DNA of 64,000 bases from Pseudoxanthomonas sp. (GTDB taxonomy: Bacteria; Pseudomonadota; Gammaproteobacteria; Xanthomonadales; Xanthomonadaceae): the NCBI RefSeq assembly GCF_027498035.1, contig NZ_CP114978.1:4015957-4079956 (forward strand). The letters run 5' to 3'. Below, piece after piece: positions 22,541-41,422 of this stretch. How positions within the stretch are numbered: position 1 is the stretch's first letter; each line of letters opens with the position of its first letter. A program made the position numbers and the translations under genes. The notes beneath the pieces are model-generated. The model saw only the letters and a program-made list of their open reading frames with translations, made no database searches and was not told the DNA's origin.

Positions 22541-22558
22541 AGTTGATAGACTCGCGTG

Positions 22559-23308
22559 ATGGCCGCTTTTGACGCGACGGAAGTACTGGTGCCGTACCGC
22601 GAAGGCCGCGGCTACGGCGCGATTCTGTTCGACCACGAACGCCTTCGGCAAGCCGAAGCGCGATGGATGGACCCAGCTTACTGGGCCGAGCGCGCGCGTC
22701 CCGTCGACAGTGGTGGCCGGGGTGGTGCGTGGTTCATCGATGCGCCGTTCGGGCCCAGCCTGCTGCGCCTGTACAAGCGCGGCGGCATGGCAGCCAATGT
22801 CAGCACCGACCGTTACCTGTGGCGCGGCGCCAACCGGACCCGCAGCTTCGCCGAATTCCGCCTGACCCGCGCGCTGCTGGCCAAGGGCCTGCCGGTGCCG
22901 CGCCCGTTCGTGGCCAGCTACGTGCACGAAGGCATGGGCTACCGCGCGGCGATCCTGATGGAGCGCCTGCCGGATGTGCGTTCGCTGGCGGATCGGTTCC
23001 AGGTCGCTGGCGGCGGTGCGCCGCTGGAAGAAACCGGCCGGCTGATCGCGCGCTTCCATCGAGCCGGCCTGGACCATGCCGACCTCAACGCACACAACAT
23101 CCTGTTCGATGCGCAGGGCCATGGCTGGCTGATCGATTTCGACCGCGGCGTGCTGCGCATCCCGGCCACGCGTTGGCGCGAGGCCAACCTGGCCCGGCTC
23201 AAGCGTTCGCTGCTGAAGCTGCGCGGCGAGCGTGCCGTGGCATTGGTGGAAGAAGACTTCGTGCGCCTGCGCAAGGCTTACGACCGCGTCTGGGAGCGGG
23301 GCTTCTAG
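22559..23308 (+). CDS. kdkA: 3-deoxy-D-manno-octulosonic acid kinase
   Basis: [37 protein letters not shown]. Confidence 0.92.
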
Positions 23309-38203: not shown

Positions 38204-39202
38204 ATGATGAGCCAGCCGGTGACGAACGGTCGTATTTACTCGCGTATCGCAGGCACCGGCAGCTTCCTGCCGGAGAAGGTCCTGACCAACGACGACCTGT
38301 CCAAGATCGTCGAGACCAGCGACGAGTGGATCCGCAGCCGCACCGGCATCCGTGAGCGTCACATCGCGGCCGAAGGCGAGAACAGCAGCGACCTGGGTTA
38401 CCAGGCCGCGCTGCGCGCGCTCGAGGCGGCGGGTGTGGCGCCGTCGGACATCGACATGATCGTGGTCGGGACGACCACGCCCGACATCGTGTTTCCCTCC
38501 ACGGCCTGCCTGATCCAGGCGCGCCTGGGGGCCGAAGGCTGCATGGCGCTGGACGTCAACGCGGCCTGTTCGGGTTTCATCTACGCGTTGACGGTGGCGG
38601 ACAAATTCATCCGTACCGGTGACGCCAAAACCGTGCTGGTGGTCGGCGCCGAGACGCTGACCCGCATCACCGACTGGACCGACCGCACCACCTGCGTGCT
38701 GTTCGGCGACGGTGCTGGCGCGGTCGTGCTCAAGGCCGACAGCGAGACCGGCATCCTCAGCACCCATCTGCATGCCGACGGCAGCAAGAAGGAACTGCTG
38801 TGGAATCCGGTCGGCATCTCGGCGGGCTTCAACGCCGACGAGGTCAACAACGGCTCGCGCATCCTGATGAAGGGCAATGACGTGTTCAAGTACGCCGTCA
38901 AGGCGCTGGATTCGGTCGTTGACGAGGCCTTGAACGCCAACCAGCTCGACAAGAGCGACCTCAACTGGCTGGTCCCGCACCAAGCCAACCTGCGCATCAT
39001 CGAAGCCACGGCCAAGCGCCTGGACATGTCGATGGATCAGGTCGTGGTGACGGTGGATAAGCATGGCAACACCTCCTCCGCATCGGTGCCGCTGGCACTG
39101 GACGAAGCGGTGCGCGATGGCCGCATCCAGCGTGGCCAGCTGCTGTTGCTGGAAGCCTTTGGTGGTGGTTTCACCTGGGGCTCGGCGCTGATCCGCTACT
39201 GA
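38204..39202 (+). CDS. fabH: Beta-ketoacyl-ACP synthase III
   Basis: AACSGF, VPHQAN, GNTSSAS triad. Confidence 0.96.
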
Positions 39203-39223: not shown

Positions 39224-39376
39224 TCAGCCGTGGCGCTTGAAGTACTGCACTTCCCTTTCATGCTGTTCCGCTGCGGCCCGCGTATCGAACGTGCCCAGAT
39301 TGCGGTGCTTGCCTGTGCGCCGGCTCTTCTTTTGCGAATACAGGCGGAACTGACCTGACGCGAGCTTGCGGATCAT
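39224..39376 (-). CDS. Small basic 50-aa protein (not in ORF track); AP2/integrase-arm-like motif
   Basis: GAGGA RBS then ATG: MIRKLASGQFRLYSQKKSRRTGKHRNLGTFDTRAAAEQHEREVQYFKRHG*. Confidence 0.82.
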   Translation of the reverse strand: MIRKLASGQFRLYSQKKSRRTGKHRNLGTFDTRAAAEQHEREVQYFKRHG

Positions 39377-39558
39377 GGCGGCGTCCTCGTTTTTTTTGGG
39401 GTCTGGCGATGAAACGACCTATCGCGTCAAGGCGGCGTCGGTCTGCGTGCCCAATCTCTTCATGTGTGCTTTCCGGTGTCTGCAGCGGACGCTGCGTTGC
39501 GGGCGGTGGCGCGCGTGTTTCATTTGCGTTAACGCGCGGCGTTTAACATGTTTCCGAC

Positions 39559-39574
39559 ATGACAGATCTGTCAT
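39559..39574. promoter_or_regulatory. Perfect 16-bp palindrome (candidate operator)
   Basis: ATGACAGA|TCTGTCAT, 21 bp upstream of the kinase-like ATG. Confidence 0.5.
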
Positions 39575-39595
39575 CGAGAGACGGAGTACGCCCCC

Positions 39596-40387
39596 ATGGT
39601 TGAACTGATCCAGATGGAAGGCCGCCAGGCCTGGCTCAAGCGTTACGGAGACGGCAGCAGCCGGGCCCTGTCGCTGGGTGCGTTGGATTTCATTGCCCAC
39701 CGCATGGGCATGGGGCCGCTACGGCCGCCGCCGCATCGGGTGGGCGTCGAAGCGCTCGACACCGAGGCGCGTCGCCTTGCCGAACTGGCTGCGCAGCGCG
39801 TGCACGTGCCGCAGGTGATCGGTCGCGGCAAGGACTCCCTGGTCCTCAGCGATAACGGCCGCTCGCTGGCTGGCTGGTTGCGTGATGCGCGCGACGAAGC
39901 CGAATGTGATCGTCTTGTGCGTAAGGCGTTGCAGGCGATTGCGCAGGCGCACGCCACCGGCGCGTATTTCGGTCAGCCATTGCCGCGCAACATGACCTTC
40001 GATGGCCAGCGCATCGGCTTCATCGACTTCGAGGAAGATCCGCTGGAAGTAATGGATCTGGCGCAGGCCCAGGCGCGCGATTGGCTGATGTTCGGCTATG
40101 GCGTGGCGCGCTACTACGAGCGGCGTCCAGCCGCATTGCAGGCGCTGATGCAGGAGGCGATGTCCGGCGAAGCGCGCGATGTCAATGCGCAGACGCACCA
40201 GGTCACAGGGCGTCTGCAGCGCCTGGCCGCGGTGTGCAATCGACTGGGACGCAAGGCGCGCCGGCTCTCGCACGCGGTGCTGGTGCTGCATTCTGCGACC
40301 ACGCTCAGCGTGCTGGTGATTGGCACGTTGGCGATCGACTGGTTCAGCGATGGCGATCTGGACGTGCTGCGTCTGCTGGTGGGTTGA
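39596..40387 (+). CDS. Atypical kinase-fold protein (Kdo/WaaP/InaA/Bud32-like), catalytic Asp replaced
   Basis: WLKRY (beta3 Lys), EARRL (alphaC Glu), VPQVI, H..GAYFGQPLPRN, GFIDFE. Confidence 0.7.
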   Translation: MVELIQMEGRQAWLKRYGDGSSRALSLGALDFIAHRMGMGPLRPPPHRVGVEALDTEARRLAELAAQRVHVPQVIGRGKDSLVLSDNGRSLAGWLRDARDEAECDRLVRKALQAIAQAHATGAYFGQPLPRNMTFDGQRIGFIDFEEDPLEVMDLAQAQARDWLMFGYGVARYYERRPAALQALMQEAMSGEARDVNAQTHQVTGRLQRLAAVCNRLGRKARRLSHAVLVLHSATTLSVLVIGTLAIDWFSDGDLDVLRLLVG

Positions 40388-40474
40388 GCGCGGCAATACG
40401 CCCCAGTACAGACGCACGGGCGGTTTCACCCGTATCATCGCCGCTCGTTTTTTCGCACCAGGGCGTTTTCGCGC

Positions 40475-41422
40475 GTGACAGATCCCACACTCGCCTTTGT
40501 ATTCCCCGGCCAAGGGTCGCAATCGCTGGGCATGCTGGCCGAACTGGCCGAGCTGCATCCGCAGGTCCGCGAGACGTTCAACGAGGCATCCGAAGGCGCA
40601 GGTGCCGACCTGTGGGCACTCTCGCAGGGCGGCCCCGAGGAAATGCTCAACCGCACCGAATACACCCAGCCCGCGCTGCTGGCCGCCGGCATCGCCGTGT
40701 GGCGCCTGTGGCAGCAGGAAGGTGGTCCGTCGCCTTCGCGCCTGTCCGGCCACAGCCTCGGTGAATACACCGCGCTGGTTGCCGCAGGTGCGCTGTCGCT
40801 GAAGGACGGTGCGCACCTGGTCCGCATCCGCGGCCAGTTGATGCAGGAAGCTGCGCCCGCCGGTGTTGGCGCGATGGCCGCCGTGCTGGGCGCCGAAGAT
40901 GCGCTGGTGGTCGAAGTTTGCGGGCAGGTCTCCGGCAGCAAGGTCGTCGTGCCTGCGAACTACAACTCGCCAGGCCAGATCGTGATTGGCGGCGACGCTG
41001 AAGCAGTCGATGCGGCCATTGCCGAACTCAATGCGCGCGGCGTGCGCAAGACCGTCAAGCTGGCGGTGAGCGTGCCTTCGCACACCCCGCTGATGCGCGA
41101 AGCCGCCAATCGCTTGGCCGAAACCATCAAGGGCCTGTCCTGGCACCTGCCGTCGTTGCCGGTGGTGCAGAACGTCGATGCCCAGGTGCACGGCAGCATC
41201 GACGCCATCGGCGAGGCGCTGGTGCGCCAACTCTATCTGCCGGTGCGCTGGACCGACTGCGTGCAGGCACTGGTTGCCGCTGGTGCAACGCGCGTGGCCG
41301 AATGCGGTCCGGGCAAGGTGTTGACCGGCCTGGTCAAGCGCATCGACAAATCCATCGACAGCCGCGCGCTGTCCACGCCCGCCGATTTCCAGGGCGCCCT
41401 CGAAACATGGAAAACCGCATGA
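40475..41422 (+). CDS. fabD: Malonyl-CoA:ACP transacylase
   Basis: FPGQGSQ, TQPA, GHSLGEY, SVPSH. Confidence 0.96.
   Translation: MTDPTLAFVFPGQGSQSLGMLAELAELHPQVRETFNEASEGAGADLWALSQGGPEEMLNRTEYTQPALLAAGIAVWRLWQQEGGPSPSRLSGHSLGEYTALVAAGALSLKDGAHLVRIRGQLMQEAAPAGVGAMAAVLGAEDALVVEVCGQVSGSKVVVPANYNSPGQIVIGGDAEAVDAAIAELNARGVRKTVKLAVSVPSHTPLMREAANRLAETIKGLSWHLPSLPVVQNVDAQVHGSIDAIGEALVRQLYLPVRWTDCVQALVAAGATRVAECGPGKVLTGLVKRIDKSIDSRALSTPADFQGALETWKTA

Follow-up and report, generated by a model that had tools for sequence, protein, structure and literature searches.

A kinase-fold protein family without the catalytic aspartate, encoded between fabH and fabD in Pseudoxanthomonas and related Xanthomonadales

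The fatty-acid synthesis (fab) cluster of Pseudoxanthomonas sp. contains, in the 64,000-nucleotide stretch of contig NZ_CP114978.1 analysed here (hereafter the window, from whose first letter positions are counted), a plus-strand open reading frame (ORF) of 263 codons whose product is protein-kinase-like but has no catalytic aspartate (Table 1). As modelled, the protein adopts a minimal bilobal kinase fold of the protein kinase-like (PKL) superfamily, without the Asp of the HxD motif. Judged from the family's sequences, loss of the base everywhere, retention of the ATP and Mg ligands and strong purifying selection argue for a retained nucleotide-dependent function. The reading that we favour, with a probability of about one half, is that the protein binds a nucleotide without phosphorylating a substrate and acts on a partner protein as a switch, slow ATPase or scaffold, with a link to lipid synthesis. 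No publication on the gene was found in the literature searched, no Pfam model matches the protein at E<=10, and its sole NCBIfam match is Bud32 (TIGR03724; 24.9 bits, E 1.2e-5, against a cut-off of 125).

Fold and catalytic-loop residues

The AlphaFold2 model of the 263-residue protein has a mean predicted local distance difference test score (pLDDT) of 87.6 and a predicted template modelling score (pTM) of 0.83, with pLDDT below 50 only in the last ten residues. Structural comparison with VIA-align places Bud32/PRPK nearest (Z 14.3-14.5 over 176-184 aligned residues; 14.5 for 3en9_A), followed by Rio1/Rio2 (Z 13.4-14.2; Rio1, 14.2), the aminoglycoside phosphotransferases (Z ~12; APH(3'), 12.4) and WaaP in complex with acyl carrier protein (ACP) (6dfl_A; Z 12.1). 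The top Foldseek matches are likewise Bud32/PRPK, and the fold matches include the pseudokinase domains of RNase L and JAK2 JH2. In the model only ten residues separate Asp144 from alphaF, leaving no activation segment and no P+1 loop, as in Bud32 and RIO, and no substrate-binding lobe is obvious. The first-pass annotation had described the product as a kinase-fold protein with Gln in place of the catalytic Asp; the structure prediction and the alignments to KdkA and Bud32, among the checks that it proposed, bear out both the fold and the Gln opposite the catalytic Asp.

Codons 125-132 read F-G-Q-P-L-P-R-N, with Gln127 encoded at 39974-39976, and codons 144-149 read D-F-E-E-D-P. A family hidden Markov model (HMM) profile, built from 66 diverse members and searched against PDB sequences, aligns 'HakglylGqpflRnmtl...igFiDF' to 'HrgGLIHGDLTTSNIIL...mtFIDF' of Bud32/PRPK, so that 'iHGDLTTSN' of chains 9x4g_B, 8k20_B and 7sza_A stands opposite 'lGqpflRnm' of the family. 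An hhalign comparison of the family segment AHATGAYFGQPLPRNMTFDGQRIGFIDFEED with a 32-residue segment, containing HADLNAHN, of the KdkA encoded elsewhere in the window (22556-23308) gives a probability of 63% and an E value of 6.8e-5, again with Q opposite D. In both alignments Gln127 corresponds to the catalytic Asp, Asn132 to the loop Asn and D144-F to the DF of DFG; the earlier contrast between FGQPLPRN and the HADLNAHN of KdkA is thereby upheld.

Conservation was assessed in two sets comprising 255 proteins: 120 close homologues, clustered at 90% identity and belonging to Pseudoxanthomonas, Stenotrophomonas, Xanthomonas and Thermomonas, and 135 full-length representatives of a distant set drawn from 665 relatives. 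Position 127 is Gln in 120/120 close homologues; in the 135 representatives it is Q (78), R (39), A (8), E (3), N (3), S (2) or H (1), and Asp is found there in none of the 255 family proteins. A strain-specific loss of the Asp, raised earlier as an outcome that would undo the claim, is ruled out by these counts, the replacement being family-wide. Operationally, a pseudokinase is a kinase-like protein in which at least one of the VAIK Lys, the HRD Asp and the DFG Asp is missing; here the equivalent of the HRD Asp is gone throughout the family.

Other kinase residues are, by contrast with the base, strongly retained. Glu57 is present in all 120 close homologues and in 132/135 representatives, Lys15 in 119/120 and 123/135 (R in 6), Asp144 in 120/120 and 134/135, and E146 in 120/120 and 127/135; P149 is kept in 123, R161 in 131 and D162 in 134 of the 135 representatives. 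Altogether, 90-100% of the family retain W13, K15, E57, P72, H119, D144, E146, P149, R161 and D162, as well as Asn or Asp at position 132, and the proposed retention of the beta3 Lys, the alphaC Glu, the loop Asn and the DFE motif agrees with the family alignments. Ten residues are listed by Kannan et al. as common to all kinase-like families (PMC1821047), and nine of them can be mapped onto this family (Table 1); the role of D220 of protein kinase A (PKA) is described in the same paper. Between beta3 and alphaC the protein carries an insert, in which L42, P44-46, H47 and G50 are invariant in an alignment of 20 sequences at 50-80% identity (alignment A1), H47 not being conserved in the wider family; an insert at the equivalent place is also a feature of the KdoK and RIO families (PMC1821047).

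Two types of catalytic loop occur in the family, 'Y-[LF]-[GS]-Q-x-x-x-R-N' and 'H-G-R-P-x-x-[RK]-D'. Arg127 is paired with Asp132 in 38 of 39 cases, all in a sister clade, and Gln127 is never found with Asp132, a pattern in which the 127/132 site appears to have been remodelled rather than left to drift. However, this Q/N versus R/D covariation tracks the two clades and is phylogenetically confounded; it is therefore no independent evidence of functional coupling. The Arg127/Asp132 site of the sister clade may itself be a charge-swapped or self-occluded active site.

The ORF is a genuine gene under purifying selection. Its product has 190 homologues in a word-index search and 665 relatives, as representatives at 50% clustering, in a HMMER scan of 1.84 billion representatives (both at E<=1e-3). 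The ratio of nonsynonymous to synonymous substitution rates (dN/dS) is 0.05 against a 94%-identical protein (dS 0.65), 0.19 against a 79%-identical relative and ~0.3 against a 65%-identical one, ranging overall from 0.05 to 0.31 and from 0.05 to 0.2 where dS is unsaturated; alignment A1 has 60 invariant columns; and G+C content at third codon positions (GC3) is 0.78, close to the 0.79 of fabD. We regard the plus-strand reading as real because of the hundreds of homologues, the low dN/dS, the fabD-like GC3 and the confident model. That the gene is instead a degenerate remnant, either a kinase gene in decay or a spurious GC-rich ORF, or that it encodes a Ser/Thr protein phosphatase as annotated, is hardly credible: the databases do name the protein 'serine/threonine protein phosphatase' or 'hypothetical protein', and relatives often have no such gene, but dN/dS at unsaturated dS and the invariant columns contradict this account, as do the fold model and the GC3, and the fold is that of a kinase. 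No PPP, PPM or other phosphatase family or domain was found for the protein in Pfam or NCBIfam, and the phosphatase name given by NCBI and UniRef is unsupported. An antisense ORF that overlaps the gene (39719-41230, minus strand, 503 aa) was taken as a GC-rich artefact. No fused longer forms of the family were found, which is weak evidence.

Table 1. Features of the kinase-like gene in the window, with the corresponding residues of PKA
Feature	Position	Strand	PKA residue	Basis
Upstream stretch, candidate promoter and leader	39490..39594	+		Conserved with nearest relative
Kinase-like gene, 263 aa	39596..40387	+		ORF, homologues, dN/dS, AlphaFold2 model, fold matches
Gly9			G52	Assigned from place between strands 1 and 2, no tool alignment
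Lys15 in W-L-K, beta3 ATP-binding Lys	39638..39640	+	K72	Strand E10-16 of model
Insert between beta3 and alphaC, residues 17-50: one helix and L-R-P-P-P-H	39644..39745	+		Helix 23-36 in model
Glu57, alphaC Glu	39764..39766	+	E91	Helix 50-66 of model
Pro72			P104	
His119			H158	
Phe/Leu in Gln clade, His in sister clade			H164	
Catalytic-loop equivalent FGQPLPRN, with Gln127 (Asp absent) and Asn132	39968..39991	+	D166 (Gln127), N171 (Asn132)	Alignments to HGDLTTSN and HADLNAHN
D-F-E-E-D-P, Asp144 (DFG Asp) and conserved acidic run	40025..40042	+	D184 (Asp144)	Aligns to 'iDF' of Bud32 and KdkA
Arg161-Asp162, start of alphaF	40076..40081	+	D220 (Asp162)	Helix 155-174 of model
C-terminal hydrophobic helix, residues ~225-247, predicted tail-anchor	40268..40336	+		Hydropathy

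Genomic setting and distribution

The ORF is flanked on the same strand by fabH (38204-39202) and fabD (40475-41422); fabG, acpP, fabF and a pabB-like gene follow fabD, and maf (minus strand), yceD and rpmF lie upstream of fabH. The order rpmF-fabH-ORF-fabD-fabG-acpP-fabF-pabB recurs in all nine loci sampled from three Xanthomonadales families, down to 35% protein identity, and the order fabH-ORF-fabD in all 80 of the closest named loci from species genomes (76 complete, 4 cut by contig ends; mostly Stenotrophomonas, with Pseudoxanthomonas, Xanthomonas hortorum and X. chitinilytica), giving 89/89 in total. The single-strand placement between fabH and fabD noted at first pass is thus a conserved one. 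In the nine relatives' loci the same-strand gaps are 21-92 bp between fabH and the ORF and 35-160 bp between the ORF and fabD. In the window no terminator-like site was found between the ORF and fabD, and co-transcription of the two is therefore plausible.

On its other side the ORF is separated from fabH by a spacer of 393 bp, which contains a 50-codon minus-strand gene (39224-39376) with a very basic product. In a tblastn search of 103 related loci (fabH-ORF-fabD or fabH-fabD), including that of the 94%-identical neighbour, this small gene was not found, which rules it out as a partner in a two-gene module with the kinase-like ORF; by this distribution it would be a local insertion, possibly a mobile small gene. 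The candidate promoter and leader stretch is 87% identical over 105 bp to the locus of Pseudoxanthomonas sp. GM95, the remaining spacer being unrelated; the 94%-identical neighbour has in common with the spacer of the window nothing but the 105 bp directly before the ORF. A consensus scan upstream of the ORF found no sigma-70 promoter.

The kinase-like gene is present in 33 of 201 genomes of the order and in 13 of 25 in the window's own family. Five relatives without it, one of them of the same genus, have intact fabH and fabD genes separated by 190-580 bp in which no trace of the ORF is left; the gene is accessory, not a core fab component. In a maximum-likelihood tree the fab-linked genes form one well-supported group (97/94) within which two relocated members are nested, a topology that fits a single ancient insertion followed by many losses. 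Beyond this group, the family is represented in further Xanthomonadales families and in other orders of Gammaproteobacteria (9 of ~400 sampled genomes), and none of these members was found in a fab-cluster setting. Their neighbours outside Xanthomonadales have no theme in common and include Acyl_transf_3 with LytTR in one genus, an enoyl-CoA hydratase, a short-chain dehydrogenase/reductase (SDR), an MsbA-like ABC exporter with NDK, glutamine synthetase, PHO4 and RimP/NusA.

Several loci depart from the general pattern. In one genus of the window's family (g4; loci L019, L022 and L023) the fab-linked homologues are ~240 aa long, have no hydrophobic tail and show S-Q where the others have G-Q; their branch lies outside the rest of the fab-linked genes, even those from other families, and so disagrees with the taxonomy, which could reflect fast evolution or replacement at the same site. 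In another genus (g36, family f9; loci L024 and L025), and in that genus only, the homologue adjoins a membrane Acyl_transf_3 acyltransferase, a LytTR regulator and an HTH-2TM protein. The matches in genomes G112 and G199 each contain one in-frame TGA. Loci labelled Bacillus subtilis SK7B5 (L074) and Nocardiopsis yanglingensis A18 (L078) carry a Stenotrophomonas-like fabH-ORF-fabD arrangement with 60-64% identity to the ORF, and are probably contaminated or mislabelled assemblies. FabD and FabH of X. campestris pv. campestris are numbered Xcc1016 and Xcc1017 in one paper; these consecutive tags, taken alone, suggest that the kinase-like gene is absent there.

Proposed function and its alternatives

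PlsB is present in the genome (TIGR03703, 1012 bits, C1:3084188-3086602), PlsX (PF02504) and PlsY (PF02660) were not found in the whole genome, and the slot that plsX usually occupies is empty, fabH following directly after rpmF. Xanthomonadales have been reported to rely on PlsB alone, without PlsX or PlsY, and are the only bacterial order of which this is reported (PMC11633183). The ORF as a replacement for the missing PlsX was considered and rejected: it is absent from many relatives in this reportedly PlsB-only order and dispensable in them, and a core role of this kind is therefore ruled out; its slot between fabH and fabD, rather than between rpmF and fabH, also disfavours the idea.

At its C terminus the protein has a hydrophobic segment, whose best 19-residue window starts at residue 229 (Kyte-Doolittle mean 1.94). 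Ahead of it lies a basic stretch (seven Arg/Lys in 22 residues); the acidic tail after it, D-x-x-x-D-G-D-L-D, has D248, D252 and G253 invariant in A1. The segment is present in 115 of 118 close homologues and absent from the short fab-linked forms of one genus and from most distant representatives. Judged by hydropathy, this arrangement fits a tail-anchored membrane protein with a cytoplasmic kinase-like domain.

Taken together, these features would suit the following mechanism. With the ATP/Mg residues Lys15-Glu57, Asn132 and Asp144 and the structural residues His119, Pro72 and Asp162 retained, the protein would still bind nucleotide; with no catalytic-loop Asp to activate a hydroxyl acceptor, classical O-phosphorylation would not be expected. 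The kinase-like domain would then act on a partner protein, be it as a scaffold, a slow ATPase or a nucleotide-dependent switch, in a mode resembling that of Bud32 and RIO on their partners and of the WaaP kinase in its tight complex with acyl-ACP. In this clade the transmembrane tail would probably hold the domain at the inner membrane. Gene position points to fatty-acid or phospholipid synthesis as the partner process, the gene presumably being expressed with fabD-fabG-acpP-fabF in Xanthomonadales, and the protein would act as an accessory modulator rather than a core enzyme. A switch or scaffold is preferred because there is no substrate-binding lobe and because the nearest structural relatives, Bud32 and RIO, act as ATPases or switches.

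Several observations weigh against this proposal or its link to lipids. The gene is often absent from close relatives, and any role in fatty-acid synthesis is hence dispensable; outside Xanthomonadales the family members do not lie in fab clusters and no shared neighbourhood theme was found, and the lipid link may be lineage-specific or merely positional. In the present genome the small minus-strand gene separates the ORF from fabH, so that the two are not simply contiguous. The WaaP fold match is no better than those of Bud32 or RIO. Finally, the conserved acidic run E146-E147-D148 beside the DFG Asp could supply a substitute base.

The last point leads to an account in which the protein is an ordinary kinase, acting on protein, sugar or lipid, with the role of the base taken over in three dimensions by E147 or D148 of DFEEDP. 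Both positions are conserved directly after the DFG Asp (position 147 is E/D in 121/135 and D148 is kept in 112/135 representatives), and Kannan et al. describe migrated catalytic residues in other kinase-like families, such as the Lys of WNK (PMC1821047). However, the sister clade carries a cationic Arg where the base should be, which fits poorly with a substitute base close by that acts on a hydroxyl, and no family member with Asp represents an intermediate state. Residues at DFG+3/+4, moreover, normally face away from the acceptor site. We consider a relocated base improbable.

A different possibility is that the protein is an active enzyme with non-canonical chemistry: either a SelO-like transfer of AMP with flipped ATP, or base-independent phosphorylation of an anionic acceptor, for instance the carboxylate or phosphate group of a lipid or of an ACP-linked intermediate; Gln or Arg in place of the base would suit such a group. 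The strong constraint on the ATP/Mg ligands, with the base alone changed, is in keeping with this, as are the conservation of R131 and of the acidic run and a replacement that is clade-specific and covarying (Q with N132; R with D132), like a remodelled rather than a decaying site. SelO and SidJ are precedents, being kinase folds without the base that catalyse other reactions. Yet beyond the common fold the protein shows no similarity to SelO or SidJ and has no Pfam match, an obvious substrate-binding lobe is missing, the covariation is confounded by phylogeny as described above, and no neighbouring gene outside Xanthomonadales indicates a substrate. We rate altered chemistry of this kind as rather unlikely, though worth taking seriously.

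A more specific form of the switch or scaffold can be sketched by analogy with WaaP. WaaP of P. aeruginosa forms a very tight complex with acylated ACP, without acyl transfer, in which a tunnel between alphaE and alphaF accommodates the acyl chain (PMC6147952). Speculatively, and with only a slim chance of being right in its details, the present protein might be a tail-anchored, ATP-binding pseudokinase at the inner membrane that clamps either acyl-ACP, in the manner of WaaP, or some other Fab or PlsB component, and so tunes the hand-over of fatty acids to phospholipid synthesis in Xanthomonadales; alternatively, the Gln/Arg site might perform a new modification of ACP or of a lipid intermediate.

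If true, a pseudokinase clamping acyl-ACP, Fab or PlsB would be a new kind of bacterial lipid-synthesis regulator on a kinase fold. Small bacterial pseudokinases of the Bud32/RIO/Kdo type are essentially undescribed, and the fixed place of this one in the fab operon of Stenotrophomonas, Pseudoxanthomonas and some Xanthomonas species makes a link to membrane lipid homeostasis testable, in groups that include opportunistic and plant pathogens and have no PlsX/PlsY route. At the least, the misleading annotation as a serine/threonine protein phosphatase can be corrected.

Comparison with known kinase-fold systems

Bud32/PRPK, of the KEOPS complex, provides the best structural match, the best PDB profile matches and the sole NCBIfam match of the protein. 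Bud32 is an ATPase that acts on a partner, not a substrate kinase. The two share a minimal architecture, with an N-lobe starting from beta1, no activation loop and a short helical C-lobe. However, Bud32 has HGD where this protein has FGQ, and the TIGR03724 score lies far below the cut-off for membership. Bud32 is archaeal and eukaryotic and pairs with Kae1, whereas this protein is bacterial, is encoded in a fab cluster, carries the beta3-alphaC insert and has a predicted membrane tail.

RIO proteins (PF01163) are ATPase-type kinases and share with this protein the beta3-alphaC insert and the absence of an activation loop, as well as Z scores of 13.4-14.2. PF01163 gives no match to the protein at E<=10, and distant family members score 12-19 bits against a cut-off of 22. 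By contrast with the present family, RIO proteins have HxD, a winged-helix domain or an N-terminal RIO helix, and act on ribosomes.

The Kdo/WaaP kinases (PF06293) are, like this protein, bacterial and belong to the same cluster of kinase-like families; WaaP matches the model at Z 12.1, an IDFE/IDFD-type metal-binding loop is common to both, and the hhalign alignment of KdkA to the family covers alphaC, alphaE, the catalytic loop and IDF. PF06293 does not match the protein, its distant relatives reaching 12.9-20.6 bits against a cut-off of 21.3. KdkA and WaaP keep HxD, whereas this family has lost it and lies outside the lipopolysaccharide core clusters. The KdkA gene of the window (plus strand) encodes a bona fide Kdo kinase (PF06293, 180 bits; HADLNAHN, IDFD). 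Next to it, on the minus strand, lies a heptosyltransferase-like gene, and the genome has no other strong member of the Kdo family.

The pseudokinases HER3, JAK JH2 and RNase L and the atypical SelO and SidJ have, as here, no HRD Asp but keep the Lys, the Glu and the DFG Asp. They are either derived from eukaryotic protein kinases (ePKs) or, in SelO and SidJ, large domains, whereas this protein is a bacterial Bud32/RIO-like core of ~220 residues; no specific sequence relationship connects the two groups, SelO (PF02696) gives no Pfam match at E<=10, and no SelO chain is among the structural matches listed. The protein thus represents an unnamed Asp-less family, set apart from Bud32, RIO and Kdo/WaaP by its scores and by the missing HxD.

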